From an uncultured virus (IMG/VR IMGVR_UViG_3300015608_000687) (lineage: Duplodnaviria > Heunggongvirae > Uroviricota > Caudoviricetes > Crassvirales), in the IMG/VR virus record IMGVR_UViG_3300015608_000687: 20,000 nucleotides of DNA, one strand, 5' to 3'. Below are positions 3,001-19,708 of this stretch, in pieces (within the stretch, counting starts at the first letter, position 1; the number at the start of each line of letters is the position of its first letter). Below the pieces are notes generated by a model that saw nothing but the letters and a program-made list of their open reading frames with translations, did no database searches and had not been told where the DNA came from. The position numbers and the translations under genes were made by a program.

Positions 3001-6000
3001 AGAACTTGGTTATCTGATTTTTTCAACAGTCTTAAATCTTTTATTGATTGGTTATTCAATAACAAGAGTCTTGTTGCTTTGTTTAATCAAATTGACAGAG
3101 GTGCTTTTAGAAATGCAAAAGCAAAGAACAAATATGGTGAAATAGATTTCAAGATTGTTCCCGGATTTAATCCTGTCACAAGTAATGTGTTTAAATCTCA
3201 GTTGGTGGGATTTATGATAAATGCTAAATTACCAGCTACTTTATCTGGTTTTGAAAAAGCATATGATATGTTATTATCTACATATGATGTAGATAATTCA
3301 GATGTTCAGAAATTTATTAAGAACAGCACCATTGAAGATTTAGAAACTAAAATGGCTGTAGTTTGGTCAAGACTTTCTAAAGCAGAAGCTAAGAATGTTC
3401 TTATGAATGAAGTTATAAAATTCTTTAAAAAGAATAAATATAATCCTGAAGTTGAGGTTTATGATGATTCTTCTTCTGAAGAAGGAGACAGAGTTTATGA
3501 TAAACCTGCTAATGAAATAGACCCTACAGATACTATAAATGAAGTTGTCAGAAACTTCTTGGCTACTACGTTAGCTATTGATAAAGATATATTTGGAAGA
3601 CCTGTTGAAACAGTTATCCCTTGGCAAACTGTTTATAACAGATTGTTACCTGTTTTATCTGTTACTCACACTAAATCTTCAGATATAATCAGAAGATTAT
3701 CTTACATGTCTAAGGACAGTAATGATACTTTTATACAAGCTGTTTACGAAAGATTAATAAAAGAAACTGGTTACAGCAAAGAAACTCCAGATGGTGTTGG
3801 TACAGAAGGTAAGAATCTTTTAATAGCTTTTAAAAATGCTTTTGCTTTAGAGCAGAATCTTTATTTACAAGCTGTGCTTGATAATGGTCAGGCTTCTATA
3901 CATATAGAAAATAAAAAAGATTTAGGTCAAAAGACTAAAGAAGAATGGGAAGACGACCACATTAAGAATTATCTTAATAAAGTAAATGCCGATAAGCAGA
4001 TTGCGTCAAAAGTCAATAAAGATTTTGAACACTTATTGTTAAGACTGAGTAGCAATCCTGCTGATGTCGAGCTTTCTAAATTCAAGAATTACAGACCTGA
4101 AAATGCTGTACTTGAGGTTTTAAATTCTGTTGGAATAAAACTTCAAAAGAAACATGCACAAGCTGCTTTTGGTGAAGAAACTGATGATGTTGAAGAAAGA
4201 AGAATTGTAAATGAAAATAAACAACCCATAATCACAATATCAGATATAAAGTTGATTTCTGAATATTTGAAAAAAGGTCAACCTTTATTTTCAGGAGAAG
4301 AAGGTGTTGATACGCTTGCTTCTCAAATAAAGCTGATAGCTACTGCTGATGCCAGATATAATCCTTTTATTGTAGCTAAGACTTATCAGGATGCTGCTGG
4401 AAAGAAAAGATATTCTTATTCAGAAGCTAATATGATGCATTCTGAAATACATAAGTTGAGAACTGATGTTTACAATGAGTCGAGATATAATGAGTTGTTA
4501 AACAGACAAAATGGTTATTTTAAATACAATAGTCTTGTAAACAAGAGTTATCAGGATGCTAAAAACATTCTTAATAACTTATGGCCCCACCTTATTTATG
4601 ATTTATCTGTCAGAGACGAGAATCAAACAGAAGGTATTACAAGCAAATCAGCTACAGACGGTGACTTTTTAGTTCTAATGCATATGTATTATCAGAGAAC
4701 TATAAAGAACTCTGAGACTGGTAATAAACCTTTTTCTATATTCAGTATGTCTCAAATTTCTGATAAGACATCTCAATATGGTTTCTTTTTACCTGTTGAC
4801 AGATATGTTACAAACGGTAAGTTGAATGAACTTGGTAAAAAGGATTTGTGGAATATGTTTAAAACAGACCTTTTCACTAAACAAGAAAAGTTTAATACTG
4901 GTTACATATTCAAAGGAGATTTGTTCTTTTTTGAGTATTTGAAATCTGATATTAATGTAGGAGATTATGTAAAAGCTCTTATAAGTAAAGAAACTTCAAT
5001 AGAGGATGTTACCCCGGAAGTTGAAAATATGATAGTTAAAGCTATCTATGATAAATTAATACAGCAAGCAAATGACCATATTAAGATTCTTCAAGATATG
5101 GGTCTTTATGATAATGTTGTTACTCCGGCTTTAAAGAAGGAATATCCCAATATTCTTGATTATTTTGTCAATCATCAGTTAAACACTTTTATCAAAGTAA
5201 ATGATGCTTACAAATTAATTGGGGGTAGTCCTAATTATACTAAAGGTTGGGATGACTTTATTAAGCGTATGGGTAGAATCATTGCTGCTGGTAGAGATTT
5301 TTCTGCTGGAAAATCAACTACTTATCACAGAGTTGCTTTTACAGATGACCAAGTTGTATTTGTAAATCCTGAAAATTTTGATGAAATAACAACTGATTCT
5401 AAAAAAGCTAAAGAGCTTGGTTGGGATGAAATAAATACAACAGATGCTCAGGTATGGTCTACAACTAATTCTAAACTTGAAGACATGCGTAAGCTGGGTC
5501 TTTTGACAGATGCTCTTGAAAGTGTTCTTTTAAGAATGTCTGTTGTAAAAGACAATGATGGAAATCTTGTGTTTCCTAATCCCGATGATGTTCCTACAAG
5601 AGATGAAATAGAGGCTGCCGGACTTGATTTAATTCCATCTAAACAAGTTACAGGTGGTAAAACAGATGATTTAAAAGAAGTCTATAACAAGATGGCTGTT
5701 CATTATCTGTCTTTTGTTGATTTGGCTTACCATGATGGTGAAAAATGGATTCCCAGACCAGACAGATTGTCTTTATATAACAAATACATGATGATGGTTA
5801 ACAATGATGTTACTCATCTTGTTCCAAAATCTGCAGCAAAGATGTTTTATGGTTCTCCTGTAAGCCATTCTTTTTTGAATGAATACACAGGACAAACTGT
5901 AAATACTTATATTGTACCAGACATATATAGAAGATTACAAGTTCAAAACAGCACTAAATCAAAGAAGAATATAGTTTTATCAAACCAGATTCTTAACATC

Positions 6001-9000
6001 ATTGGTTCTGAATTACCTGATACTGAAGAAAACAACAGATTGAAAACTAGAATGCAACAAAGCATTGCTAGGATGAAATCTCAGGATTTAAACTTCTTAG
6101 ATAGGATATTAGTTGGTTCTGATGGAAAAAGACCTGATTTAACAGTATTGTTGAATACCTTAATGAGTATTGCCGAAGATTCTTCTGGTGATAGCCAGAT
6201 GCTTGAGATGTTGAGTCATACTAATGGTAAACCAAATTATGATACTAACGTAGCACACATTTCCTCTAAGTTTACTGAAATGTTCTTTTCCAGATATAAA
6301 GATGTATTCAGACAGAAAGGATTTGGTAGAATATTGACAGCAGTTTCTTCTGACGGTTATAACGTAATTGAAGATAAGGATACTGGTGAAATCATTACAG
6401 ATTATACAGAGTATAATCCAGATAAGCATAAAATCAGACCTTTAAGAGGTATGAGAAACAGTGAATCTGGAATAACTCCTGCTGAAATATTTATACCCAG
6501 AAAGTATGCAGAATTATATAACTTACAAGTAGGTCAGGAACTCACATCAGATTTGTTCAAAACAATTCTCTACCGTGTACCTTCTCAGTCATATCACTCT
6601 GCTGCTATAGCTAAAGTAGTTGGATTCTTACCTGATTATTATGGTGATACAATAGTTGCTCCTAAAGAGTTTGTATTGCTTATGGGTATGGACTTTGACG
6701 TGGATAAGCTCTATATGTACAGTAAGGCTTTCTATCAGAATAAAAAAGGAGAAATCATAGTTTACGGCAAAGAAAAGACTCTAGAACAAAGATTTGAGTC
6801 TTATCTTAAAGACCTTACTGAAAACAATCCTTATATCAAAGCTGAATATAAAAGAAGACTTGAATCTGACAGTTCTTTTGCTGAAGTTAAGGAAGAACTT
6901 AAAAACGCAAGAAAAAAACTTAATTCAATATTTGAAGCAAAGAAAGAACTAAGAATACATAAAGGTGTTTTGCAAAGACTTAATCGTACAATGCAAGACA
7001 TACTTGGTGATGACAATAGTGAATTAGACCAAGAAAGTTTAAGCGAGAATATCTTGTTTATAAAGCAGGATATAGCTGAACTTCGTAATATTGTTTCTAA
7101 TATTCCTAATGTAAAAGAAGAGATATTCGATTTAATGGACAGCATAGTTCAAAGACAAGAGTTTGAATTAGTTCAAACTTTAAAGTATTTCAACATGCCT
7201 GTTAATATGGAAGAGTTTTCTAAATCTTCTTATATTCCTAAATATCAACTTTGGAACGATGTTGTTGATTCCATGTATGAGATATTCAGTAAATCTGATT
7301 TGTGGGATGCTTTTCGTATGAAACTCTCTACAGATAGAACTGACAGTTTCATTGAAACAAATAAAAACAAATTATCAACTGCAGATATTGTTCCGGGTAC
7401 TCCTAATGCTGTTTATAGTTCATTTAAAAACGCAAGACAAGGTAAAGTACAAACAGGTATTGCAGTAACAAATAACACAGGTATTCAGTTCTTACTTGAA
7501 AATAACATTGTAATTGACCCTGAAATAATTCAAGAAACGCCTATAATCTTTAACAATGAAATAATCAGGCAGTTTAACATAGATGATTTAAACAGAGAAT
7601 CTATGGACGCAGGTTCTGAAATATTAGGTCGTATTGTAGATAATCAGAAAAACCCTGTTGCTGATAAGCTTAATCTTACTCCTGAAACTATGGGTATAGC
7701 TTATATTATAACTAAAGCTACAGGTGATTTGGATTTAGCTTTATTGTTTTTACAGTCACCTACGTTAAAAGCCATTTCAGAAGCTAAAAAGAACTCTGAA
7801 AGAGTAGTTAATCCTGTTGATTATTTTGGTGAAACTACTAAGATATTGAAGAACTTAGATAACAAAGAAGTAGAATTAAAGAAAAAATCACCATCTCTTG
7901 TTGTAAATTATATTCCTGTTACTAAACAAAATCTGGAATGGTTGATAAACAACCTTAATTATGAAACTTTATCAGATGATGATAAAGCTAAATATATAGG
8001 TTTAGAAAAAGAAATATACAGAAATTATAGTATTTTAAAAGATATTGCTGGTACTACACAAGCAATAACTACAACATTGTCTTTAAATAGGTCAATTGAC
8101 TCTGATATAGCTTCTGCATATAGAGTTTTAAATGCTTTTGATACTGTTGAAAAAAACAAGGTTCTACCTAATGCTTATGGTGCATTAATGAGTAATCCTG
8201 TAAATCAAGTCAATTATGATATTTTAAAACACGCATTAAGAACACTTTCTTTATATCAAATTACTGAAACATATTATGCAAATAATGTAATTGACACTGT
8301 TCTTGGTATGTTAAGCAGTTCTGGAAGAAAGAAATATCATCAGGATATTATCAATTCTTTTATGAGTTCCTTGCAGATGGCTGTTATTGAAAAGAACGAA
8401 GGTTCTTTATTAAAACATGCTGAGTTGCTCATGAAAAATCCAAAATCTTTAGCTAACATTGTATCTGAATTTAAAAGCAGAAAAGAATATGAAAACAATG
8501 TGTTTCTTAAGCTTTTAAGTACTAAGATGAATTTGAAAGAAGAGGCTTATGATTTAGTTACAGCAGATAGTCGCAGTAAGCTTTCTCCAGAGGCTCAGGC
8601 TGCTATATTAGACGCTTCTACTTATATAATGCATAAGGAACCAGAGTTATTCAGAAAGCTTGAAAAGTATCTGCAATTGATGGATGGTATGATGTTTAGA
8701 AACGGTTCGTTTGTAAAAATGATGCCTGCTGAGACATTTAAATCCGTAGCTAAAGCTTTAGAAGACATTAATGAAGTATTAACGGGTAACTACAATAATG
8801 AACAAAGAATAGCTAAATTCAAAGAGTTGACAGGCTATGATTTCAATGAATTTAAAAACAGGTTCATTGATCAATTCTTTATGCATATTGTAAATAAAAG
8901 ATTACCAAGAACAGATTATAAGGGTTATAATAAAGAAGGTAAAACAATATTTAATAAGACTTTTATAAATGGAATACTTAAAATAAATCTGGTAGATAAA

Positions 9001-10074
9001 ACTAATCCTGAAACAGATATTCAGGTATTTCAACCTGTTTATAATGAAGACGAAACTCTTTTAAGAATAGAGTTTCCAAGATATTTAAGAATTAAACTTG
9101 AAACAGGTGGATACAAAGGATTTAGATTAAAGAAAAAAACTGATTTTTCTGCTGAATATGAACCAATAATTTACATAGGAGATAAAAGAAGAAAGCCTTA
9201 TTCATTATCTATTGCTGACAATATTAAGTTGCAGCAGATGCTAAAACAGGATATTAAACAGAATACTCCAGATACTGTAGAAGAATCAACTAATCTGATT
9301 TCTGATGATAATAGTGTATTCTTTGAACAAGAAAGTGTTGGAGATATAGCTTCACAAATACCTATTGATGAATCTACTTATATTCCTGCGTTTGGAAAAG
9401 CTGTTGCTAAACCTGAAGAAAAATTAAAAATAAACATTTATAGTGGTACTGGAGAAAATCCTGAATTAAGTAACTTTGCTAATAGACCTTTTACTGATGA
9501 TGGTATTGGAGATTTGGGAATGAATTATAAAGAAGCGACAGGAAAGTCTATAGTATTCAATACTGTAGAAGGTTTCTTCCAAGCTTCAAAAATACAATAC
9601 TCAAACTCTTCTGAGTACTGGGATAAGTCTAAAGATGGTTGGACTTTAACAAAAAGAGGAATTGAACTAATAGAAAAATTTGCCAAAGCAACTGGTTCAG
9701 AAGCTAAGTCTTTAGGTAGAACTATAAAAGAATTAGATACAAAAGAATGGGATAAGTATTCTTCACAGGAAATGAAAGGAGGTTTACTAGCATCTTTTGA
9801 ACAAAATCCAGATGCTTTAGTTAAACTTCTTTCTACAGGAAATGCTACTCTCACTCATACACAAGATAAAGGTAAATGGGGAGTTGAATTTCCAAAATTA
9901 TTAATGGAAGTAAGAACAGAACTTGCAAAACAACAAACTCAAAATCTTTGGTCTCAGTATCAACAAGCTTCAATAGAAAATAATAAAACTGTAGATTTAA
10001 CACAAGCTGAATTTGAAGCGTTATCTACTGAAGAACAAGAAACTATAATTTATCAAATCAAAAACTGTAAATAA
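1..10074 (+). CDS. Giant virion-type DNA-dependent RNA polymerase polyprotein (crAss-like / phi14:2 gp66-like two-barrel RNAP) with zincin and NADAR-like accessory domains; probably 5'-truncated
   Basis: Frame is open from base 1 (KIDDKPVLGY precedes the GTG at 31), so the true start probably lies upstream; ends TAA 10072-10074. Contains MGMDFDVDKL (6682-6711), YRVPSQSYHS (6571-6600), TTDAQ (5437-5451), PKSAAK (5824-5841) and VDNQKNP (7636-7656), in the order expected for crAss-like RNAPs. Confidence 0.9.
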   Translation, partial: KIDDKPVLGYVQKVQPNGLLESIEEYPFVAKTFNQTTGRNEYDIVLPDGSIERVDNPTFVETDGSSGTQSSGKVVLNGVDHFSNPLFWNYYREVEMLKNISAAEGISEAELLEAYGQEGFPAHYQRALLEHILATRPNWRDYIKLEAVQNKQSPEYLAKPVDLKNKRIRGKRYSGVNITLSITNPETGEVYRLAHTLDTDFFEEVSDEGVVTPIDFLKLDYNEFNSKFAFRSFGEKNERNATPEEYEKFLLVYESAMTFNKWVNKWYSDNNYKDIVPIPEEAYSLEPYGMLDFKHKLDPEVAIADIPVLENAPIIAPFQSTLKTINGLPLPSGLDFNLEITSGAYYALAQFPNGYNTWVRLNGKTIEQDKELEKELSELIKNANNFASNFDSTTALNTLVEFEGSEVELKQAFKTLSDRLGFIQSNDPRISVNWSIDVPMASEDALPNYQVKLEFKFTEEGKSIKGSSLYITDFESISDLLSQIKEHEKKNAFLINKARVLYSVDKSSFKSWPAYGDLGLNYKKKLYPVTKPNIVKSWNVKIRFNGEALMKEVPLAVSNYTPSDIDESVPSEFSGTEIEDFIKEQETDIQTKKAETERRRQEELNKDNVLSELKKIVSKETFENANTEGQIEQRVIFVKEHSNNEKAKELAKQWLNIKNHSDKINARYDAKIKALEEQTAQPEIKAKKAYIEKRRQEELKSLPLAEKRDEINNANVMEVIPGDKFGNVRPKYIPFIIIEEANKNDKLGGQTAREINIRGGYSTKELDSKLPNWRNYLTGAKEINAKYDAEYVDAVKKGEMTKEQAMQALEQAGRKGSDAYTELAALENKKSEQNKLSKFKKEDLDKYDNIDFKIVDRGTINYTLTLEDARDWVAKRFGKSAFVQNIDTLIHNSEITGIPVGAVVNNIMYLRKIGDKTDMYHEAGHIVFNNFLPFKRQNAYIERIKNELKWSPKQLEEAKQKLRARSSRYRNMSDAALERKVYEEQIMDKYADWQTKREETRTWLSDFFNSLKSFIDWLFNNKSLVALFNQIDRGAFRNAKAKNKYGEIDFKIVPGFNPVTSNVFKSQLVGFMINAKLPATLSGFEKAYDMLLSTYDVDNSDVQKFIKNSTIEDLETKMAVVWSRLSKAEAKNVLMNEVIKFFKKNKYNPEVEVYDDSSSEEGDRVYDKPANEIDPTDTINEVVRNFLATTLAIDKDIFGRPVETVIPWQTVYNRLLPVLSVTHTKSSDIIRRLSYMSKDSNDTFIQAVYERLIKETGYSKETPDGVGTEGKNLLIAFKNAFALEQNLYLQAVLDNGQASIHIENKKDLGQKTKEEWEDDHIKNYLNKVNADKQIASKVNKDFEHLLLRLSSNPADVELSKFKNYRPENAVLEVLNSVGIKLQKKHAQAAFGEETDDVEERRIVNENKQPIITISDIKLISEYLKKGQPLFSGEEGVDTLASQIKLIATADARYNPFIVAKTYQDAAGKKRYSYSEANMMHSEIHKLRTDVYNESRYNELLNRQNGYFKYNSLVNKSYQDAKNILNNLWPHLIYDLSVRDENQTEGITSKSATDGDFLVLMHMYYQRTIKNSETGNKPFSIFSMSQISDKTSQYGFFLPVDRYVTNGKLNELGKKDLWNMFKTDLFTKQEKFNTGYIFKGDLFFFEYLKSDINVGDYVKALISKETSIEDVTPEVENMIVKAIYDKLIQQANDHIKILQDMGLYDNVVTPALKKEYPNILDYFVNHQLNTFIKVNDAYKLIGGSPNYTKGWDDFIKRMGRIIAAGRDFSAGKSTTYHRVAFTDDQVVFVNPENFDEITTDSKKAKELGWDEINTTDAQVWSTTNSKLEDMRKLGLLTDALESVLLRMSVVKDNDGNLVFPNPDDVPTRDEIEAAGLDLIPSKQVTGGKTDDLKEVYNKMAVHYLSFVDLAYHDGEKWIPRPDRLSLYNKYMMMVNNDVTHLVPKSAAKMFYGSPVSHSFLNEYTGQTVNTYIVPDIYRRLQVQNSTKSKKNIVLSNQILNIIGSELPDTEENNRLKTRMQQSIARMKSQDLNFLDRILVGSDGKRPDLTVLLNTLMSIAEDSSGDSQMLEMLSHTNGKPNYDTNVAHISSKFTEMFFSRYKDVFRQKGFGRILTAVSSDGYNVIEDKDTGEIITDYTEYNPDKHKIRPLRGMRNSESGITPAEIFIPRKYAELYNLQVGQELTSDLFKTILYRVPSQSYHSAAIAKVVGFLPDYYGDTIVAPKEFVLLMGMDFDVDKLYMYSKAFYQNKKGEIIVYGKEKTLEQRFESYLKDLTENNPYIKAEYKRRLESDSSFAEVKEELKNARKKLNSIFEAKKELRIHKGVLQRLNRTMQDILGDDNSELDQESLSENILFIKQDIAELRNIVSNIPNVKEEIFDLMDSIVQRQEFELVQTLKYFNMPVNMEEFSKSSYIPKYQLWNDVVDSMYEIFSKSDLWDAFRMKLSTDRTDSFIETNKNKLSTADIVPGTPNAVYSSFKNARQGKVQTGIAVTNNTGIQFLLENNIVIDPEIIQETPIIFNNEIIRQFNIDDLNRESMDAGSEILGRIVDNQKNPVADKLNLTPETMGIAYIITKATGDLDLALLFLQSPTLKAISEAKKNSERVVNPVDYFGETTKILKNLDNKEVELKKKSPSLVVNYIPVTKQNLEWLINNLNYETLSDDDKAKYIGLEKEIYRNYSILKDIAGTTQAITTTLSLNRSIDSDIASAYRVLNAFDTVEKNKVLPNAYGALMSNPVNQVNYDILKHALRTLSLYQITETYYANNVIDTVLGMLSSSGRKKYHQDIINSFMSSLQMAVIEKNEGSLLKHAELLMKNPKSLANIVSEFKSRKEYENNVFLKLLSTKMNLKEEAYDLVTADSRSKLSPEAQAAILDASTYIMHKEPELFRKLEKYLQLMDGMMFRNGSFVKMMPAETFKSVAKALEDINEVLTGNYNNEQRIAKFKELTGYDFNEFKNRFIDQFFMHIVNKRLPRTDYKGYNKEGKTIFNKTFINGILKINLVDKTNPETDIQVFQPVYNEDETLLRIEFPRYLRIKLETGGYKGFRLKKKTDFSAEYEPIIYIGDKRRKPYSLSIADNIKLQQMLKQDIKQNTPDTVEESTNLISDDNSVFFEQESVGDIASQIPIDESTYIPAFGKAVAKPEEKLKINIYSGTGENPELSNFANRPFTDDGIGDLGMNYKEATGKSIVFNTVEGFFQASKIQYSNSSEYWDKSKDGWTLTKRGIELIEKFAKATGSEAKSLGRTIKELDTKEWDKYSSQEMKGGLLASFEQNPDALVKLLSTGNATLTHTQDKGKWGVEFPKLLMEVRTELAKQQTQNLWSQYQQASIENNKTVDLTQAEFEALSTEEQETIIYQIKNCK
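1762..2481 (+). repeat. Two tandem bracket repeats: I-x-x-KKA-x-x-E-x-RRQEEL ... insert ... IN-A-(R/K)-YDA ... (L/I)-x-ALE
   Basis: Left arms 1762-1812 (DIQTKKAETERRRQEEL) and 2047-2097 (EIKAKKAYIEKRRQEEL); right arms 1984-2028 (DKINARYDAKIKALE) and 2344-2370 + 2464-2481 (EINAKYDAE...ELAALE); the enclosed inserts are unrelated. Confidence 0.85.
2566..3129 (+). other. Zincin-like metallopeptidase domain within the RNAP polyprotein
   Basis: YHEAGH (HExxH at 2761-2775), downstream EEQIMDKY (candidate third-ligand helix) and WLSDFFNSLKSFIDWLF amphipathic helix; zincin-RNAP fusions are known in crAss-like phages. Confidence 0.75.
5251..7656 (+). other. RNA polymerase catalytic core (two double-psi beta-barrels, DxDxD metal site, putative bridge-helix/trigger-loop region)
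   Basis: DDFIKR (5251), TDAQ, SAAK, RxP motif (RVP 6574) and DFDVD (6691-6705); DFDxD resembles the DFDID catalytic motif of the phi14:2-type RNAP. Boundaries approximate. Confidence 0.85.
9430..9924 (+). other. NADAR (YbiA-like) domain near the C-terminus of the RNAP polyprotein
   Basis: LSNF...F, TVEGFFQASK, EAKSLGR, EWD, FEQNPD...LLSTG, WG, LLMEVRTEL match the NADAR motif series (SNF, EhyfQAxK, AKxlGR, KFxQN, LlsTG, WG, LMxvR). Confidence 0.8.
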
Positions 10075-13000
10075 TGCCTCATTGCATAGTAACATCACAC
10101 CCTGATTATTTAAAATTGCTTAAAGAATCTGGTTTAAAAGAACCAATTCTCAAAGCAAAAATATCCGTATGGCAAGAAAAAACAGGAAACTTAGATAGAT
10201 TTCCAACTGTTGCTGAACTAAATAATTTAGTAAGTAGTCCTAATATTTCTATTAAACCAGGAGTATCAGAATTATTTGAGAATAATCCTGAATTAGTTAA
10301 TGCTGTATATGAAGCTTTAGGGTTTGAAACAAATAAAATAAAAGGAATTTGGGGACTACCAGAAGGAGTCAGTTCTTTAGAAAAAATATTTGAAAAAAAA
10401 GTAAAAGAAAAAGGAATAGCTTTTTCTACCGCTAAAGAATTATTAGAAATTATAAGTCAGACAAAAGATACTTTAGCACCAATAGCTAAAAGTTTAATTA
10501 AATATACAGATAAGATATTAAACGCTAATGTAGAAATTTCTAAAAAATACCGTGATGGTAGATATATACCGCAAAGTTCTTCTTATGAAGAAGAAGATAA
10601 AGGTAAAATACTTTTACAAGCAAGTGGTACGTTTGCATTAAATAGTAAAATAATTATACATGAGATAGTACATAGTTTTACTTCTGATTTTGTTAGAAAT
10701 AACCCTAATGATGAATCTGTATTACAATTAAAAAATATTATACAAGAACTTAAAAAAAGAGGTTATAAAACAGTAAATTATATCAATGATAATAATGCTT
10801 CTAATAATGAGTTTTATTATTTTAAAAATGAACGTGAATTTATTGTAGGATTGTTTTCTGATACTGAATTTATAAAAACTTTACAAAAAGAATCTGGATT
10901 GAATAATAAAAAATCTTCTTTATTAGAAGAATTGTACAATACGATTCTAAAAATGTTAAATATAAGTCCTAAAGAATATAATCTTTATGAAGAAAGCCTT
11001 TATTATGTAGAATCTATATTAAACAATCCTGCTAACAAAGTACAAACTACCTATGATAAAATAACCCCACAACAAAAACAACAAGCTCAACAACTGTATT
11101 CTCAATATTTAGAACAAAATCCTAATGGTGATGTAGAACAGTTTAAGAGTTGGGTGAATGAGTTTAATAGAAAAACAAATTTAGAGAAAACTTCTGAAAA
11201 CAAAACAATAGAAGAATTATATAAAGAAAATCCAAAGCTTAAAGAGTTCATTAATTCAGTAACAGATGAAGATAATACTACATTGTCTTTATATAAAGTT
11301 AAAAATTTATTAAACCAAAAAGGTGAAGGTAGAATTGTAAAACTTAATAATATTCTCTATAATGCAATAAGTAGACTTTGGGATAATAGAATATTTTCTA
11401 ATAATAATATAAAGATATATTTTGTAGATTCTTTATCTGATAATGCAGTTGGTAATTTTAATCGAGATGATAATGAAATAACTATAGATAAAACAAAGTT
11501 TTTAAACATAGTTAATAATTCATATCAACAAGATGAAATATTTTATTTAGGATATATTTTAAATCATGAAATAATACATTACTTAACACCCAATGATTTA
11601 AGTCTTAAAATAGAATATATAGATAGAGCGTTGGAGGGAAGATTTGGTAAAACTTTTGAATTACCATCAGAAAAAGAATTTGGAAAGAATATAAAAGAAC
11701 TTTATGATATTGCTAAATCTCAAATAGAAGATGTATCAGACTATGGATTTACTAATTTAGCGGAATTTGTAGCAGAAGCTATGAGTAATCCTAATTTTCA
11801 AGAAAAACTTGCTTCTGTACCATATAAGTCTACTAAGAAATCTCTGTGGAAAAGATTTATTGAAATTGTATCAGCTTATTTAACTAAATATACTGGTAAA
11901 CCAATCAATGATACTTTATTAGAAGCAGTATTAGCTGAAGTTACAAATTATATAACAGAAAATTCCAATATTCAAAAAACTTATAAAATAAGAAATAAAG
12001 AAAATGATGTATTTTTTGATTTTGTATTTAATACAGAAAAAAATGTAAAATCTCTATCAGACTTCATATCTAAAAAATCTCAAGAAAGATTAAAGGCTAT
12101 TCAAGAAGTTTTTAATAGTAATCCAGAACTTAGTAAAATAGGAGATGTTTTTTCCTATGCAATCTATCTTGATTCTATCTTTCCTGATAGTAAAGTAAAG
12201 GATATTGTTTATCATGGAAGCCCCCAGTTTGGGTTTGATAAGTTTTCTAAAGAAAAATTAGGCGAATTTACTGGAGCAGGTTCTGCTAGATTAGGGTTCT
12301 TTTTCTCCAATAATTTAGAAAATTCTTTTGCCGCATATACAAGAAATGTAGGTAAAGATATCTCGTTTGGTGATGATGGAAATGCAGAAGGGATTGAAGG
12401 AACTTTTGGTCTTTCACAAATAGATTCTCTAATAGAAGATTTAAATGAAGGTAGAAATTTTACAGATAACGAGATAAGAAGTAAAGAGTATTTTATAAAA
12501 AGCACGTCTAAATCTGGTGGAGTATCTTATGGCAGTCCTTTTAAAACAAAAGAAGAAGCTTTAGAAGGTTATAAAAATGATGATTGGAATTATGACCCAG
12601 AAGCTAAAGTAGAAGTAATTGAAAATATAAATTATGGTAAATATAGGTATAGTAAAATAGATTGGTTAAAAGATAAACCAACAGTTTATTATAGAGAAGA
12701 ATTAGGGAAAAAAGATAGTAAAATTACTACTTCAGAAAAAGAATATACTAATGCTTTAAATAAAAGAAAAGATTTTTTATTAAATGAAAGAACTAAATAC
12801 ATTAAAGAGCAATCTAAAAATAGAGTATATAGTATTTTATTAAACTCTAAAGATTTAAAAGAATTTGATGATAAAGGTAATGAGTGGAGGGAACAAGCTT
12901 ATGTTGATAGAATTAAACAAACTTTATCTGAAAATAAAGATGGTTTAGTTATTAGAAATACATATGACCCTTTATTAAGTGACGTATATGTAGTATTTGA

Positions 13001-14580
13001 ACCAGAACAAATCCACATATTAGGTTCTCAATCAGATATTCAAGGATTTAAAGAGTTTGTTAAGGGTAAACCTAATAGTGTTAAACCTGGAGTTGAGGAA
13101 TTATTTAGTGAAAATCCTGAGTTAGCTAATGAAGTATATGAAGCTTTAGGGTTTAATTTTAGATACACATCTGAAAAATGGAAAGATGACCCAACATTAG
13201 AAAATAAAGCAACGTATATTAATATAAAAGGAACTCCTTCTAATCAAGAGTTTCAAGTAAAAAAAGATATTGAAGAAGGATTTTATTCTGTACATTTTAA
13301 AACTGAACAAGGGAAACTAACTAAAGAGCAAATACAAACATTGGTAGATGCTGTAGCTTCTCAAATTCCAATTGGAGGTAAATTATCAACATGGGGAAAA
13401 ATTAGTAAAGGCGGTATTTCAGGATTAAACAGATTCTTAAATAATGGATTTAAGAAAGTTGGAGAGCGTGAAATTAAAGATAGAGAAGGACGTCCTATTG
13501 TTGTACCTATATTAGAAAAAGTAGAAAAATCTAATTTAGAGCAACAAGCTCAACAGCTTTATTCTCAATATCTCGATACTATATTTCCTGATAGTAAAGT
13601 GAAGGATATTGTTTATCATGGTACGGTAGAAAAATTTGATAAGTTTGACTTAGAAAAGGTTAATAAAAATAGAAAAGCTTTTTGGTTTGGAGTTAAACCT
13701 GAAGAAACAGCTTTTGGTATTAAAATTCCAGTTTTACTAAATATACCAAAATGGACAGATTTTAGAGGTAAAGGTGCAATTGATGTTTTAAATAATGAAA
13801 CAATTGATAAAATTAAAGAAAAAGGAGGTAAAGGTTTTATTGGAGAAGGATTTTACGGAGAAACTCAAATAGGAGTATTTGAACCAGAACAAATTCATAT
13901 ATTAGGCTCTAAACAAGATATAGAAGGATTTAAAAAGTTTGTTAGTAACCAGTCTTTACCTGCTGCATCTATTCCTACTATTGGTAATTTAGATAATTTA
14001 CAATATGAATTTCATATAGTAACTAAACTATTTTCTGATAAAGGTCAGCAATTAATAAAGTCTTTGACTAAAAATAAAGTTAGTCAAGATGAATTCTACA
14101 ATCAGCTACAGACTAAATTACAGATTCCTAGAGACCAAATGAATCTCTTAAAAGAATCTGAGGGTAATACTATTGAAGAAAAGTTAGCTTCATTTGCTGC
14201 TAATTATAGTTATACTGTTGAGATTAATACTGCTAAAGATTTTAATAAAGATGGAGCTAAAAATTATAATTCTTTTGATTTAAATAATAGAAGATACTCT
14301 AGGGGAATAGATGATGAAGTAGGTCAATTCTATCAATATTTTGATTTAGAGAAAAAACAATTTGTAAATATTTCTCAACAAGAATATGAAAAAGCTGTTA
14401 ATGAAGCTAAAATAAAAGATGAAAAATTTAACACTCAATACTATTCTAATCTAACAGTACCAGGTGGTACTAACTATACAGAAAATGAAATATCCACTCC
14501 ATTAATTACTCCTAGTATTAAAGGTCATGCTCAATTTAGTACTGATAATGGTATTGGGTGGTTTAGAAGTGATGATAAAG
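10074..14580 (+). CDS. Giant polyvalent virion/ejection protein, 5' part (two zincin domains, two ADP-ribosyltransferase-like domains, possible GNAT-like domain); probably continues across the N gap to 19365
   Basis: ATG overlaps the upstream stop (TAATG 10072-10076); frame open until the N run at 14581; HEIVH 10659-10673, HEIIH 11565-11579, two IVYHG...VFEPEQIHIL units. Confidence 0.85.
10252..10325 (+). repeat. Box A copy 1 (KPGVSELFENNPELVNAVYEALGF)
   Basis: Direct repeat with 13081-13154; 60/74 nt identical by manual alignment, last 21 nt identical (gtatatgaagctttagggttt). Confidence 0.9.
10326..11060 (+). other. Zincin-like (MPTase-PolyVal-like) metallopeptidase domain 1 of gene 2
   Basis: GRY...KILL...IIIHEIVHSFT, then NEREFIVGLFSDTEFIKTL and SLLEELYNTILKML. 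Confidence 0.75.
11241..11960 (+). other. Zincin-like metallopeptidase domain 2 of gene 2
   Basis: VGNF...ITI...LNHEIIHYLT, then YGFTNLAEFVAEAMSNPNFQEKL and SLWKRFIEIV. Confidence 0.8.
12165..13061 (+). other. ADP-ribosyltransferase-like domain 1 (ART-PolyVal-like) with a large internal insertion
   Basis: IVYHGS...FDKF...GFFFS...AAY...RVYSILLN...DGLVIRN...YVVFEPEQIHIL motif series typical of ART domains of polyvalent proteins. Confidence 0.7.
12993..13061 (+). repeat. Box C copy 1 (VFEPEQIHILGSQSDIQGFKEFV); copy 2 at 13875-13943
   Basis: 60/69 nt identical by manual count to 13875-13943 (VFEPEQIHILGSKQDIEGFKKFV). Confidence 0.9.
13081..13154 (+). repeat. Box A copy 2 (KPGVEELFSENPELANEVYEALGF)
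   Basis: Direct repeat with 10252-10325. Confidence 0.9.
13542..13622 (+). repeat. Box B (QQAQQLYSQYL-DTIFPDSKVKDIVYHG); 5' half repeated at 11079-11111, 3' half at 12165-12218
   Basis: 12165-12218 vs 13569-13622: 49/54 nt identical by manual count; QQAQQLYSQYL is identical at protein level at 11079 and 13542. Confidence 0.9.
13569..13943 (+). other. ADP-ribosyltransferase-like domain 2 (compact)
   Basis: IVYHGT...FDKF...AFWFG...IPVLLN...KGFI...IGVFEPEQIHIL; termini nearly identical to domain 1. Confidence 0.65.
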
Positions 14581-14695
14581 NNNNNNNNNNNNNNNNNNNN
14601 NNNNNNNNNNNNNNNNNNNNNNNNNNNNNNNNNNNNNNNNNNNNNNNNNNNNNNNNNNNNNNNNNNNNNNNNNNNNNNNNNNNNNNNNNNNNNNN
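14581..14695. other. Assembly/scaffold gap (115 N)
   Basis: Run of n characters. Confidence 0.99.
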
Positions 14696-17600
14696 ATTTA
14701 TTTCAGAAAGGTAGAGACAATAAAGACTTAATTACTAAATTTCCAGATAAACATCTGCTATCATTAGAAGAATATTCTAAACAATACAATAAAATTGGAG
14801 AAAAAATAGGAAGTAAGGAAAATAATTTTTTACAACTTCTGAACAAAGACAATAATTGGGTAACCTTTTTTGTTAAATCTATCATACAAGATAGTGCTAA
14901 AAAAGGGTATGAGAAAGTATTATTTCCTACTGGTAACACTATTGTTAAAATAGAACAATTTGACAGAATTAAAGAACAATTAAATACACTAAATAATAAA
15001 TTAAAAACTTTAATTGAAACTAAAGTTGAGGATAATGGTTATGGTGTTTGGTTTTATGAAGCAGGTGTAGATGAAGAATCAGGAGGCCCTTTTAATTCAA
15101 AACAAGAAGCTGAAAAATCATTAACCAGTAGTATAGAAAAAACTAAAAGAGATTTACAACATTTTGAATCTGCTAATAAAACTGTAATAGGAACTATTAA
15201 CTTCTATGAGAATACTGTAACTAATATTCTTAAAAAACAAGGATACAATCCTGTATTAATTACAGATGAATACGGTAATACTTGGAATGAGGTTACTATT
15301 AAAAAAGAATACTTATCTCCTGTTGTTTTAAGTTATAATCCTCAAGATTTATTTCTCAATAACCTAAAAAAGCAACTTAGAATATCTGGAACTAAAAGTA
15401 GAATTCAAATAGCTAATATAAATGAAAAAATTGCTGAAATCAATAAATCATATAATATTGTTGTAAAATTAGATGTTTCTAAAATAGGACAATCTGATTC
15501 TTTTAAACTTGATTTAAAACTATTAAAGAATTCTTATCACAAATATCTTTCTGAAAAGACTTTAAAAGATGTTTTAGAAAAAGTATCTCAGAGTAATAAA
15601 ACCATGAGTACTTTAGCTAAAAAACTTCTAAATAAAATAGATGGTGTTGAAAATGTTCCTATTGAATATATTTCTGATGAAGAATTTCGTAAGATAAAAG
15701 GTTCTGTAGTTTATGGCAAAAGTGCTGCAGCTTTATATATTCCGAATGAAAAAAAGATTGTAATCAATATTGACTATATCAATAAACATCCAGAATCAAT
15801 AATTATCCATGAAATATTACACGCAATAACTTATCACTATATCCGTACTAATGATACTATAGCAAGAGAATGGCAAGAGCTTTATAATAAAGTAAAAAAA
15901 CAATTTGAAGGAGATTCTTTATATGAATCTCACGCATTAAGAGATGCAGATGAATTATTAACTGCTGTGTTTACTAATGCTAATTTTATAAAAGCATTAG
16001 CTACTAAACCATCATTACTTGCACAAAGAGCTACTTTATGGGATGACATTAAGAATTTCTTTAAAAACACACTTGGTTTAAATAATATTGAAAGAACCTT
16101 GTATGACGACGTGTTTGAAAAAGCATCTGAAGTAGTTGACGTAGCTGCTCAATTCAATAAAAATGGTTCAGATTGGAGTCTTTTCGATGATATGCCTTTA
16201 GCGGAAATTCAAGAAGATGAACTTGAATCTTATATAGACCCAAGAATAAACAGGGCCATTGACAAAATGGTAAACACTCTTAGTTCTAAAAAGAAAGAAC
16301 TTAATGAGCAATATATCAAAGGACAACATGCTGATATTTCTCGTAGAAAAAATCTTATTGAAAATAGTATAGTGAGATTAATTTCAAAAGAAAGTCCTAT
16401 AGATGATTTAATAACAGTAGGTTATAGAGACTTGTCTCTTGCACAAAAGTATTTCAATAAAGTAGATATAAGTAATTGGGAAGCTGCTCAATTGATGTAC
16501 ACAATTGAAGCTATAAAAGTATTAGACGAAGATTTAAAAGGCGTTGAAATGACTGATGAGCAGTCTGCAAAACTTTCTAAACTAAGGCAAAAGGCTCTTG
16601 AGTTTAGCTCAAAATTCGATGCTTTCTTAAAAACAAGACTTGAAGTTTTATCAAGAGCAAAAGGTCTTGAAATAAGTAATATTGATTTTGCTTCACCGTA
16701 TACCGATAGAAACATTGTTTCTGCAGCAACTTATAACATGGGTATATCTGAAATACCTCATTTAAGAGTTGGTGAAGCTATTATACAGAATCTGATGCGT
16801 TCTGCACAAGAACAAATAGATTCTTTCAGAAAAGAAAGAGAATTATTAATAAAAGAAGTTGGAAGAGAAGCTTTTGCAAAAATATTTGATTCTTCTGGTT
16901 ATCTCATAACTGAATACAAAAGGGAGTTTTTCGATGAAGAAAAACAACAAATACAAGAAGCTAATGACATAATTTATAGTGAAACCGCAAGTCCTGAAGA
17001 AAAAAGAAGAGCTGAATCTAAGTTGTTGAAATGGTTTTTAGATAATTATGACTATTATCTTACTGAAGAAGGTAAGGCTGATTATGAAACAGAACTCAAT
17101 AACGTAACTGAAGATAGTGAAAATGATGCTGCAGCAATAAAAGAATTTGAACTTAGATATTCTTGGTTGAATCAAGGGAATATAGATGCCAATGGTAAAT
17201 TCACTCCTAATAAACTATTCATTCAATATAAAGACGGAGTAAAGGCTTCTGGTTGGTATAAATATCTAAAAGCTGTTCCCAAGAGTATCCACAGAGATTC
17301 TCGCTACGATTCTATAAAAGATACGCCTGCTTATGACTTCTATGTTAAAAAAATGATTGAGGCCAGTCTTAAAATACCACACGAACTTGCAGTTGAACGT
17401 GGTTCTTTTTATAAATTCCTCAAACATGTTAAATTAGATGCTGCTGAATCTGTTGGTGGATTATCCGTATTTGCCAAAACTCTTTGGAAAGAAATGAAGA
17501 ATTGGACAAATGTTGATATTAGTATTGCACAGGCAGAAGGTAGAGACATCAGATTAGTTGACGAAAAAGGCAGACCTAAAGGAAAAATACCTTATAAAGC

Positions 17601-19365
17601 AGTAGATGAAATAAAAGTAAAAGACCCGTTAAAACTTTTAGAGGACTTTTATAAAACTGCTGTAATGTATGAAGCCAGATTAGATGCTCAATCTCAATTG
17701 GATTTGGTTGGTTATGATTTAGAAAAATTACCGGGATATTCAAGAAACAAAATAGGTGCTATACGCAAAGATATGGCTGGTAATCAAGTATTAATCGAAG
17801 GTGGTTTGACTAATGCTATAAACCAATTCAGATACCGTAAGGAAGCTGCTTTAACAGGTAAAACAAGAACTGATGAAAACATAGGAGTTGTAAAACCTAC
17901 TCCAGAAGAAATAGAAGCTAAAAAAGCTGCTATAAAAGCCAAAAGAGAAGCTGGAATAGAAATTACACCAGAAGACTATATGTTCAACAGATTTAGTGTT
18001 GTAAAGTCTTTAGATAGTGCTATAGACTATACAAGGCTTTTACTTATTGGTTTAAAACCATTTACAGCAACTGCAAACTTATTAATTGGTTTAGCAAACA
18101 ACTATATATACGGAGCTAGAAATACTGATTTCTCAGAAAGTAATCTTAATTGGGGATTAAAGAAGATATTTAAAGCTTATACAACAGGTCTTGTTACAAA
18201 GGATAAAGAAGCTTTTAAACTTGCTAACTTAGCTGAGAAATTTGGATTAACTGAAACTCTATTTGAAGACCAAGGTGAATATCAAAGTAAATTCTTTTCT
18301 AAAGTCACCAAGTTTATGATGTCTTTACAAGCTGGTGGTGAATTTGTAATTAGTGTTCAAAACATGCTTGCTTTTATGGATAAAATTAAGATAAAAGATA
18401 AGTCTGGAAAAGAACGCAGATTATATGATGCTTACGATGAATTTGGACATTGGCGTAAAGATGTATTTGGAGACATGCCTGAATGGGAAAACATGACTGT
18501 TCTTGATGGTGCTGGAACTAACATATCTAAAATAAATCAATTACGCAACAGAATTGATGAAATAAGAGATAGAACTCAGGGTGATTATAGAAACCCAATG
18601 CCTGCAAAAGGCAAAGTCTGGGGTAGAATTTTAGCTATGTTTAGAACTTGGTTGCCAAGAGCTGTACATGAAAGATTTGGTAGTCATAATCCTGCAATAG
18701 GCTTCAAAGGACGCTATAGAAGTTATGGAACAGCATTTGCCCAGTCTTGGAACAAAGGTGGCTTAAAAGAAGCTTTAAAGCTTTTAGGGGCAACTTCTCT
18801 TACAACCTTTGTTAAAACCATGAATTTGCCTGTAATCAACACAATGTCTGCAAACGTATTAAGTAAATTAGCAGATACTACACAAAGGTCTTATGATAAT
18901 TATCTTGAAAAGCTTGATATAACTGAATTAGATGTTCAAAATATGAGGTCAAATATTAAAGAGTTGCAATTCATTTTATTTACTTTGATGTTAATAGCCG
19001 CTTTAAAAGGACTTGACGATGATGATGAACAAAATCCAATGTTGAATTTTACTTTGAATTTATCTAATAGATTATATCAAGATTTAACTTTCTTTACAAT
19101 TCCGACATCTTTTATGAGTATTGTAAAAGACCCTATTCCTTTATATGCTTCTGTAAAAGGTACTGTAGATGTAATTAATGCTTTAACTAATTACATAGAA
19201 GACCCTTCAAAAGATGAATATAAAACAGGTTATAGGAAAGGTGATAGCAAAACATGGAAAGAAATCACAGATATGTTACCAATATGGTCATCTTGGAACT
19301 CTACACAAAGCGTTATGAGTCAGGTATCTAGTCAAGATGCATACAGATACACAGATAAAAAATAA
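14696..19365 (+). CDS. Giant polyvalent virion/ejection protein, 3' part (zincin domain and long helical C-terminal region with hydrophobic segments)
   Basis: Open frame resumes right after the gap (LFQKGRD at 14698) and runs to TAA 19363-19365; HEILH 15808-15822 followed by DELLTAVFTNANF; C-terminal QGDY...GRILAMFRTWLP...RF motif and hydrophobic ELQFILFTLMLIAALKGL (18961-19014). Confidence 0.85.
15550..16150 (+). other. Zincin-like metallopeptidase domain 3 of gene 2
   Basis: AAALY...KKIVIN...IIIHEILHAIT (15808-15822), HALRDADELLTAVFTNANFIKAL, TLWDDIKNFFKNTLG. Confidence 0.8.
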
Positions 19366-19390: not shown

Positions 19391-19708
19391 TTAACAATCT
19401 TCTCCAGTTCTTATATCAGATTCTTTTATAAATACACCGTTTAAAGTAACACCTTTTCTATTTTTAATCTCATTATAAGCATGTTCTAAACAATCTTCAA
19501 TATCAAGATTGTTTTGTGCAGCTAAAATAATAAGAGTTACCAAAACGTCTCCAATACCGTCTTTAATACCTTCAGTATTGTTTTTAACAAGAGCTGAAGC
19601 AACTTCTCCAAGTTCCTCAACAGTCTTTATAAATTGTTTTAAAGCTGTTTCAGGAGTAAGGAGATTTCTGTCTTTAGCCCATTGCAATATGTTTTCTTTA
19701 TTTCTCAT
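19391..19708 (-). CDS. MazG-like nucleotide pyrophosphohydrolase (all-alpha NTP-PPase superfamily)
   Basis: WAKDRNL, KQFIKTVEELGEVA, IKDGIGDVLVTLIILA, CLEHAYNEIKNRKG, GVFIKE: EExxE and DxxxD metal-binding pattern of small phage MazG-like proteins. Confidence 0.85.
   Translation of the reverse strand: MRNKENILQWAKDRNLLTPETALKQFIKTVEELGEVASALVKNNTEGIKDGIGDVLVTLIILAAQNNLDIEDCLEHAYNEIKNRKGVTLNGVFIKESDIRTGEDC

Follow-up and report, generated by a model that had tools for sequence, protein, structure and literature searches.

The stretch of DNA analysed here (from here: the window) comprises 20,000 nt of an uncultured virus, recorded as IMG/VR IMGVR_UViG_3300015608_000687 and labelled there as Crassvirales. 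The public runs containing it are wastewater/activated-sludge metagenomes from 8 studies. The plus strand of the window is filled by three very large open reading frames (ORFs). The second of these, ORF2, encodes a polyvalent protein in which short conserved boxes, termed A, Bh, Bn and C, form a recurring frame around variable domains. This frame, and the exchange of domains that it may permit, is the subject of the present report. The three ORFs are:

1..10074, plus strand: ORF1, giant protein of 3357 visible aa, 5′ end open, DFDVD at aa 2231
10074..14580, plus strand: ORF2, polyvalent protein bearing the frames, 1502 aa, its 3′ end entering a run of N
14698..19365, plus strand: ORF3, giant protein with a zincin motif (HEILH), 1555 aa

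The ATG of ORF2 overlaps the stop codon of ORF1 (TAATG), and ORF2 is translationally coupled to ORF1, the DFDxD giant protein directly upstream. A run of N of 115 nt, starting at 14581, separates ORF2 from ORF3.

Repeated boxes form a frame with two sockets

The order of modules along ORF2 is given below. Labels beginning with P denote homologous metagenomic proteins and those beginning with L viral contig loci; X9, X11, X12 and run X1 are public wastewater runs, to be distinguished from the inserts X1 and X2 of the window. Slot 1 extends from box A to Bh and slot 2 from Bn to box C; ART stands for ADP-ribosyltransferase.

10242..10334, plus strand: box A copy 1, interrupted form (...NPELVNAVYEALGF), assigned from repeats and box profile
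10335..11057, plus strand: slot 1 insert X1, zincin-like (HEIVH), similar to the ORF3 zincin (E 1.5e-12)
11058..11156, plus strand: Bh joined straight to a C-tail-like helix (ITPQQKQQAQQLYSQYLEQNPNGDVEQFKSWV), slot 2 empty; 89-92% identical in P0026, P0048 and P0051
11157..12095, plus strand: zincin 2 module (HEIIH), between two frames; found as one block in P0004 (88%), P0005, P0007, P0008 and P0011
12096..12224, plus strand: uninterrupted frame start consisting of a degenerate A, 8 residues and Bn (…NPELSKIGDVFSYAIYLDSIFPDSKVKDIVYHG), slot 1 empty; repeats and box profile
12225..12983, plus strand: ART-PolyVal core 1 with a large insertion, 254 aa from Bn to C; PF18760, 31.5 bits in two stretches
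12984..13070, plus strand: box C copy 1 (VFEPEQIHILGSQSDIQGFKEFV); repeats and box profile
13071..13154, plus strand: box A copy 2; repeats and box profile
13155..13532, plus strand: slot 1 insert X2, family not recognised; 116/126 residues identical in P0015, whose ART core differs
13533..13634, plus strand: complete B box, Bh + Bn (QQAQQLYSQYLDTIFPDSKVKDIVYHG); repeats, box profile and structure model
13635..13865, plus strand: ART-PolyVal core 2; PF18760, 37.0 bits; 72/77 residues identical in P0021, whose slot-1 insert differs
13866..13952, plus strand: box C copy 2; repeats and box profile

A preliminary description of this DNA had reported three boxes, A, B and C, recurring at 81-91% nucleotide identity around unrelated sequence of variable length. 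The repeats lie at the places described, with identities of 81-92%, and the sequence between them is indeed unrelated and differs in length. Box A recurs at 10252-10325 and 13081-13154 (81% over 74 nt) and box C at 12992-13062 and 13874-13944 (87% over 71 nt). Box B, however, is not a single element in three copies. It consists of two half-boxes, the helix half Bh (11079-11113 vs 13542-13576, 89% over 35 nt) and the half containing the ART N-terminal strand, Bn (12165-12217 vs 13569-13621, 92% over 53 nt), which are found together only in the third B copy. At the protein level, the ungapped BLOSUM62 scores were 100 for A, 98 for C, 95 for Bn and 52 for Bh. These repeats are far beyond chance, as the box profiles match hundreds of other proteins.

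Each box corresponds to a defined structural piece. Box A is a helical hairpin, Bh a helix, Bn the first strand of the ART-PolyVal domain with its His, and box C the last ART strand with its Glu followed by a tail helix. The consensus of the frame reads KPGVxELFESNPELA... for A, ITPQQKQQAxQLYSQYL for Bh and KQDIEGFKEFV for the C tail. Two forms of the frame start occur. The uninterrupted form, KPGVxELFESNPELA[SN]IGTxEQYSQYLDTIFPDSKVKDIVYHG, was found in 27 loci, and the interrupted form, ...NPELANxVYEALGF - insert - ITPQQKQQAxQLYSQYLDTIFPD..., in >40 loci. Comparison of the two indicates that a six-residue turn (IGTxEQ) is replaced by an insert equipped with an adaptor at each end, VYEALGF to its left and ITPQQKQQA to its right. 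The window holds both forms, the interrupted start at 10242 (zincin-like insert, 244 aa) and at 13071 (insert X2, 123 aa), and the uninterrupted start at 12096. The degenerate A noted earlier at 12099 is therefore real, being part of the uninterrupted form, while a second degenerate A placed at 11208 had a score of 40 and gave no match to the A profile at E <= 1e-3.

The second socket is filled by an ART-PolyVal core or, in its place, closed by a short turn (DT-GKQ; EQNPNG in the case of 11106-11156). The first strand (IFPDSKVKDIVYHG) and the last strand (VFEPEQIHIL) of the core are the inner halves of boxes B and C. A clean ART-less junction, ...QLYSQYLDTGKQDIEGFKEFV, in which Bh is joined directly to the C tail, was found in 32 distinct proteins, two of which (P0107 and P0187) read YLEQNPNGDIEGFK, as does the window at 11106-11156. 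The slot described there as collapsed is thus a recognised variant, and such junctions demonstrate that the frame exists without any ART.

In addition, a piece of 78 residues recurs between Bh and Bn (L067:912-1224 with L074:1233-1545; also in P0016, P0031, P0036 and P0098) and may mark a third site, smaller than the two sockets, at which the frame takes inserts.

The order of the boxes is fixed across phages

Profiles of the boxes A, Bh, Bn and C were compared with ~115 metagenomic homologues, with 79 viral loci and with 141 further proteins selected by box A only. The order of the boxes was identical in all three sets, with variable content between them, as a search for the boxes across phages had been expected to reveal. 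Among the ~115 proteins, A was followed by Bn in 43 instances, at a distance of 6-11 residues, and by Bh in 75, at -1 to 731 residues. Bh was followed by Bn at -5 or -4 in 41 of 55 instances, or by C at -1 to 2 in 11 of 14. The distance from Bn to C was 70-286 residues (107 times), and C was followed by the next A at 4-10 residues in 17 of 27 instances. The box-A-selected set gave the same picture, with A to Bh 114 times, Bh to Bn at -5/-4 in 56/60 and Bh to C at <=9 in 23/30. Among 1.84 billion, the box A profile alone matched 637 cluster representatives with the threshold at E <= 1e-3; with E <= 1e-10, the number was 321. The viral loci were obtained by an alignment-based scan; a scan of viral contigs with a single protein had given 14 pattern matches, of which 0 were confirmed.

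Slot 1 takes unrelated domains and slot 2 an ART core or nothing

The 184 inserts of slot 1, those of the box-A-selected set included, fell into 71 BLAST clusters; the first 73 inserts had given 40. Pfam matches comprised an AAA_33 kinase (62.7 bits, clear) and a second ART-PolyVal (37.1 bits), while GNAT (22.5 bits), SprT/M78-type peptidases and DUF7831 stayed below the cut-off. In the window, insert X1 matched no Pfam family above the cut-off. Its label as zincin-like, like that of zincin 2, is based on HExxH motifs and, for the former, on the likeness to the ORF3 zincin mentioned above, which itself has a SprT-like match below threshold (17.4 bits vs a cut-off of 25.6). Insert X2 had no match in Pfam, and its best score in the protein atlas was 0.90, to unnamed clusters without a family. 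The term GNAT-like, given previously to 13155-13541, thus finds no support from either source.

Both copies of slot 2 in the window pass PF18760, with 31.5 bits (12165-13062) and 37.0 bits (13542-13943) against a gathering cut-off of 31.2 bits, both scores being marginal and each made up of two stretches. In relatives, the match starts with profile position 8 at Bn and extends to about position 131 at C. According to PF18760, Bn and the first half of C form the two ends of the ART-PolyVal domain, so that the slot between B and C is the variable body of one enzyme family. A structure model of ART copy 2 (aa 1145-1294; alignment of 56 sequences) reached a predicted local distance difference test (pLDDT) score of 90.1 and a predicted template modelling (TM) score of 0.80, and has a beta core with an N-terminal and a C-terminal helix around it. 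The top Foldseek matches of this model in PDB were the ART domains of PARP4, tankyrase and PARP2 (probability 0.99-1.0; E 1e-3 or weaker, TM 0.35-0.5). By this model, copy 2 is predicted to have the ADP-ribosyltransferase fold.

With the boxes removed, only 105 of 3,081 pairs of ART interiors were detectable by blastp. The earlier proposal of swappable effector slots applies to slot 1, between A and Bh, which alone takes unrelated domains. Slot 2 has to be seen differently: it is either cleanly empty or filled by a hypervariable ART core, and all these cores are divergent members of a single enzyme family.

Relatives are mosaics with breakpoints in the boxes

Relatives of ORF2 differ from it by single cassettes. 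In P0015, 116/126 residues of insert X2 are identical and 14/77 of the ART core; in P0021, it is the core that is kept (72/77) and X2 that differs (23/126). The ends of high-scoring segment pairs (HSPs) cluster at the boxes across the protein hits, and 5,296 of the 6,078 blastn HSPs among viral loci both begin and end in a box. Several pairs of loci illustrate this. L005 and L026 have an ART core with 91% identity over 479 nt and a slot-1 insert in one of them only; L046 and L062 share a slot-1 insert (90.3% over 568 nt) next to different cores, and L013 and L014 a core (98.3% over 362 nt). In L006 and L016, the backbones are 66-67% and the box 92% identical, and the slot contents are unrelated. 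The slot replacements anticipated for relatives were thus found, with breakpoints that lie in the boxes.

Contigs from the public wastewater runs were compared as well, with parts of the stretch lacking contig cover left out (X9 13169-13371, X11 10733-11950 and X12 12357-12965). A contig of X12 retains 12990-13623 and 13884-13943 and has 413 other letters instead of 260 between them, a difference of +153 nt that is in frame. In record 24 of X9, position 9418 is joined to 9940 with 2 letters between, by which a cassette with a NADAR domain is lost in frame (net 519 nt); the backbone of this contig is near-identical to the window, with 4-5 other letters per piece. This cassette belongs to ORF1:

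9419..9939, plus strand: NADAR cassette at the ORF1 C-terminus (aa 3140-3313); PF08719, 47.3 bits; repeat family D5

It is flanked by a weak A-like ENPEL motif on one side and by a degenerate Bh (QQTQNLWSQYQQ) on the other, and is a presence/absence cassette. Most of the box-to-box joints in contigs, with sides of 21-56 nt, are probably cassettes of other phages between like boxes and not deletions in this genome.

Mosaicism of this kind could be an assembly artefact if short shared repeats made assemblers misjoin cassettes, the window included. Logan contigs do break at the boxes, where the summed contig depth in the public wastewater runs (contigs only) is 4-10 fold that of the flanks, and no listed contig bridges the first or second B copy (B1, B2) or the second C copy (C2) with 31 nt on both sides. 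Moreover, all comparison sequences are metagenomic, and the mosaics stem from short-read assemblies, for which shared repeats are places of possible misjoining. Yet the boxes measure at most ~105 nt, and ordinary sequencing reads are longer than this; exact identity between copies, at <=47 nt, is also below ordinary read length. The junctions A1 (X12 record 17), C1-A2 (run X1 record 6) and B3 (X12 record 20) are crossed by contigs, and the reading frame is open through all junctions. Each adjacency of the window recurs in independent assemblies, B1 in P0004 and P0005, B2 in P0005, P0009 and P0010, C1 into A2 in P0009 and P0010, and A2 with B3 in P0013 and P0016, and the same box order is present in several hundred proteins from many sources. 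An artefact is highly improbable on these grounds.

Synonymous sites of the box DNA are conserved

In the four box pairs of the window, identical residues were encoded by the same codon at 53 of 68 positions, compared with 37.2 expected (p 5.5e-5). Between loci, the fraction of identical box residues with the same codon was 0.75-0.79, against 0.53-0.56 calculated from pooled codon usage. When locus pairs with only 20-40% identity outside the boxes were considered, the values were 0.76-0.77 for the boxes, 0.58-0.59 for aligned non-box sequence and 0.54-0.59 for conserved non-box 12-mers; the codon counts of locus pairs are interdependent, as many loci are related. Synonymous divergence of the boxes, whose comparison with the background had been named beforehand as the refuting test, is therefore well below background.

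The codons chosen depend on the position within the box. Ser is AGT in 70/78 instances at Bn9 and TCT in 48/53 at A11, Gly is GGG in 29/44 at A24, and Glu is GAG in 40/48 at C23, while GAA dominates elsewhere. A general codon bias does not explain such position-specific choices. The conserved blocks have sharp edges, third positions included. Exact runs of >=20 nt were present in 26-46% of the between-locus box pairs and runs of >=30 nt in 6-12%; the longest exact runs between the window's box copies and other loci were 30-47 nt, with the Bh copy at 13533 reaching only 17 nt. Shared exact runs of such lengths would probably suffice for homologous recombination.

Synonymous conservation might serve another purpose, such as ribosome pacing at domain boundaries or an RNA or DNA signal, and be unrelated to the mosaicism. 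Codons that are in the minority for an AT-rich sequence are fixed at domain edges (GGG at A24, ACC at Bh2, GAG at C23), as pacing would have it. Common codons are fixed by position too, however (ATA vs ATT, GTA vs GTT, CCA vs CCT), and entire blocks of 24-26 codons with sharp edges are conserved rather than a few pause sites, which, judged by the codon pattern, makes such a purpose very unlikely as the explanation.

An old tandem duplication of ART-PolyVal with a helical extension, in which the boxes are the paralogue core and no exchange takes place, would account for Bn and C being conserved ART ends. Up to 12 ART copies per polyvalent protein have been described in passages of Iyer et al. 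2017 (PMC5512222). This explanation is scarcely credible and already contradicted. Slot 1 contains unrelated folds, the frame occurs without ART, relatives have one cassette in common and not the next, and box codons are far from saturated even where the core interiors can no longer be aligned, as seen from the blastp comparison of the cores above.

Intragenic homogenisation was dropped as a candidate process, because box copies of one genome resemble each other no more than they resemble those of other genomes.

Predicted packing of box A with Bh and the C tail

A two-chain prediction of box A with Bh-ART-C scored 0.63, while the best of 3 controls scored 0.02. Among solved complexes, 116 of 157 attained this mark, compared with 2 of 215 mismatched pairs, counts that are rough since custom alignments were used. 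The runs agreed in >=87% of contacts, with a partner pLDDT of >=76. Box A contacts residues 11-24, in the Bh helix, and residues 133-146, in the C tail. As both chains are pieces of one polypeptide, the result supports packing within the chain. A, Bh and the C tail are thus predicted to pack as one helical scaffold of about four helices, in line with the common scaffold previously suggested.

A proposed structural socket with recombination arms

Box order, the diversity of inserts, the identity of slot 2 as ART, the synonymous conservation and the mosaic relatives are probably best explained together by a structural socket whose conserved box DNA provides the recombination arms with which cassettes of a polyvalent effector protein are exchanged in frame. 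Two loops of the frame would serve as sockets, holding either turns or inserted enzyme modules. Co-infecting or co-resident phages would trade cassettes by homologous recombination within the ~60-105 nt of box DNA, a process that would keep each junction in frame, and repeated exchange would itself keep the box DNA uniform across the phage population. The ORF2 protein would be carried in the virion and act on the host early in infection. The preliminary view of the boxes as homology arms and/or scaffold for in-frame swapping agrees with box order, breakpoints, codons and predicted packing; its further steps, recombination and virion delivery, we infer. The observation itself is confirmed, the central reading stands with the corrections given above, and the mechanism is plausible and testable.

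Besides the contig ends at the boxes and the short-read origin of the mosaics, several points weigh against this reading. The exchange is inferred, no recombination event having been seen directly. The left end of the NADAR indel lies at no recognised box (its right end is in the degenerate Bh). The window's own box copies (0.76-0.84) are no more alike than copies of different phages (0.75-0.79), and nothing points to recent exchange inside the ORF2 gene. The interiors of ART cores have a mild codon excess as well (0.65-0.67 at 20-40% identity, from small numbers), and other causes, e.g. position-specific codon selection at domain boundaries, could bring about synonymous conservation. A single-chain model of A2-X2-ART2 from an alignment of 11 rows had a pLDDT of 48 and was unusable, so the scaffold relies on the two-chain prediction alone. 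Virion packaging is proposed from a five-residue motif and gene order, while ORF1 matches no solved polymerase in sequence and the unit matches no GenBank phage. Finally, the ART domains of the window may not be active enzymes. The catalytic triad of ART is described as H in strand 1, Y in strand 2 and D/E in strand 5 in passages of Iyer et al. 2017 (PMC5512222). The catalytic His (YHG) is present in both copies and the acidic residue in both C boxes (FEPEQ); the Tyr of the family's GxYF in strand 2 is missing in both (GFFF and AFWF), with strands assigned from alignment and model.

Alternatively, the frame might matter as protein only, be it as scaffold, connector, protease-processing site or packaging/ejection signal. 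Cassettes would then arrive by rare illegitimate recombination, selection would keep the in-frame junctions, and the likeness of box DNA would be a by-product of cassettes spreading with their frame ends. The boxes are strongly conserved as protein and predicted to pack together, zincin-type peptidases occur in the same proteins, and the NADAR indel begins outside any box, all of which suit this alternative. Autoproteolytic release of domains has been proposed in passages of Iyer et al. 2017 (PMC5512222). A role as protein only would leave unexplained, however, why ~80 loci have position-specific synonymous codons in common while other conserved motifs there are at background, why the great majority of HSPs are bounded by boxes, and why copies share exact runs of 20-47 nt. 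For these reasons we regard a role as protein only as unlikely.

Returning to the socket with recombination arms, a wider version is put forward tentatively, with slightly more doubt than belief. The frame would be a portable socket for in-frame exchange, a folded four-helix adaptor with coding DNA near-uniform, synonymous sites included, across the crAss-type metapopulation. If this applied, any phage could gain, drop or swap host-takeover enzymes in a frame-safe manner, and the system would be a protein-internal counterpart of the cassettes of integrons and polymorphic toxins, acting on proteins that enter the host along with the genome.

Relation to known systems

Polyvalent proteins of phages and conjugative elements combine 2-15 effector-type domains in a single polypeptide, and the H-Y-[D/E] ART is their commonest protein-modifying domain, in one to many copies, according to passages of Iyer et al. 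2017 (PMC5512222). ORF2 corresponds to this definition. It has two HExxH zincin-like modules, two ART-PolyVal domains, insert X2 and a shared C-terminal domain, and relatives in the viral collection. Of the hallmark domains, ART is above the PF18760 cut-off and the peptidase weaker, being represented by HExxH motifs. Zincins, GNATs and kinases as partners, fusion or adjacency to virion RNA polymerases and a predicted delivery with the DNA are further likenesses (PMC5512222, in part). In contrast to the present frame, the relevant passages of Iyer et al. 2017 (PMC5512222) give domain contents and architectures, and contain no two-socket frame, no DNA-level conservation of junctions and no breakpoints at junctions. 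In these passages, the only cassettes said to recombine are those of a kinase locus, which has separate small ORFs, and the terms 'linker', 'shuffling', 'inserted' and 'tandem' have 0 occurrences in the main text of that paper (Iyer et al. 2017, PMC5512222). Full-text literature searches, with most subscription journals outside their reach, returned no description of such a frame.

A second comparison concerns bacterial toxins with exchangeable parts. Polymorphic toxins (Rhs, CdiA, MuF-toxin) have variable toxin tips behind a conserved motif, which are replaced by recombination with orphan cassettes. As in these, a conserved sequence lies beside a hypervariable effector part, with swapping by recombination in the conserved part. 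Unlike in polymorphic toxins, each cassette lies inside the protein and is bracketed at either end, every frame offers two sockets and frames follow one another in series, and the carrier is part of a phage structural block and not a secreted bacterial toxin. ORF2 has no cassette as a C-terminal tip. No immunity gene or orphan cassette was seen in the window, and no small ORF of >=100 aa follows on the plus strand.

Modular phage evolution with conserved linker sequences between exchangeable modules was reportedly put forward by Susskind and Botstein in 1978. Boundary sequences of lambdoid phages and mosaic tail-fibre genes are examples of such linker-guided exchange of modules. The frame is similar in that short conserved DNA between unrelated, functionally equivalent modules would guide homologous exchange. 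It differs from such linkers, which lie between genes or in tail-fibre genes, in being coding, in frame and within one protein, where it is predicted to form a folded scaffold.

No feature of a diversity-generating retroelement, shufflon or intein/homing element was seen in the window, although no dedicated search was run.

Polyvalent proteins are thought to be the first weapons that a phage or plasmid brings into a cell, and the fast change of their domain sets has so far been unexplained. A two-socket frame with homology at the DNA level would offer a concrete, testable mechanism for this turnover. The boxes would also provide a search handle to hundreds of candidate host-takeover or anti-defence domains; most of the 71 slot-1 clusters are without a Pfam family. 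The frame suggests itself as a natural in-frame display scaffold for engineering phage-delivered enzymes. Furthermore, the conservation of synonymous sites in phage genomes that are saturated elsewhere is relevant to the way in which phage populations of wastewater, and probably of the gut, are shaped by recombination.

ORF1, ORF3 and other features of the window

The DFDxD motif is a mark of the large crAss-type virion RNA polymerase protein according to part of a preprint (bioRxiv 10.1101/2020.03.07.982082). By this motif, ORF1 is probably a crAss-type virion RNA polymerase, although we do not file it as a member. A giant DFD[IV]D ORF carries or adjoins the A-insert-ART-C unit in most viral loci and in the window. 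A phmmer comparison of ORF1 aa 1501-3000 with PDB gave 0 sequence matches to a solved polymerase, and ORF3 had no match among PDB sequences. PHROGs were uninformative for the three giant ORFs, with only an unnamed family at the NADAR part of ORF1. Among 50,697 GenBank phage records, there was no match to ORF2 or the A2-to-C2 unit (tblastn) or to the whole window (megablast).

The A-insert-ART-C unit is fused to the C-terminus of the DFDxD giant protein in L008, L010, L013, L017, L032, L034, L057 and others, and opens the next giant protein in other related phages. The unit thus moves between adjacent giant genes.

Outside the frames, ORF2 has two terminal domains:

10074..10241, plus strand: N-terminal conserved domain, ORF2 aa 1-56, holding the sole Cys of ORF2 (aa 4)
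13953..14580, plus strand: ORF2 C-terminal domain, common to many relatives with 38-56% identity

The first 52-76 residues of ORF2 (MPHCIVTSHPDYLKLL...; 10074-10301) are 82-92% identical in P0025, P0027 and P0042, which differ downstream, and this conserved N-terminal piece could serve for docking or packaging, or as a junction element. ART core 1 is 65-70% identical as a block in P0009, P0010 and P0012.

Cysteine is almost absent from the three giant proteins, with one in ORF1 (Cys 3356, 10066-10068), one in ORF2 (Cys 4, 10083-10085) and none in ORF3. That of ORF1 is two residues before the protein end, and the lone cysteines of ORF1 and ORF2 thus lie opposite one another on the two sides of the junction between these ORFs. 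The C-terminal domain of ORF2 (13945-14580) contains 0 CpG against 12.1 expected; observed/expected ratios were 0.34 for ORF1, 0.42 for ORF3 and 0.25-0.65 for the cassettes.

In the homologue P0029, a single continuous chain contains the sequences that correspond to the end of ORF2 (…GHAQFST..GIGWFRSD…) and to the start of ORF3 (…LFQKGRD…NQFLQLLNKDNNWVTFF…). ORF2 and ORF3 may accordingly be one protein (14527-14720), split in the window by the run of N and lying in different frames. Just behind ORF3, on the minus strand, is a small gene for a MazG-like pyrophosphatase (19391-19708; phrog_1992, E 6e-43).

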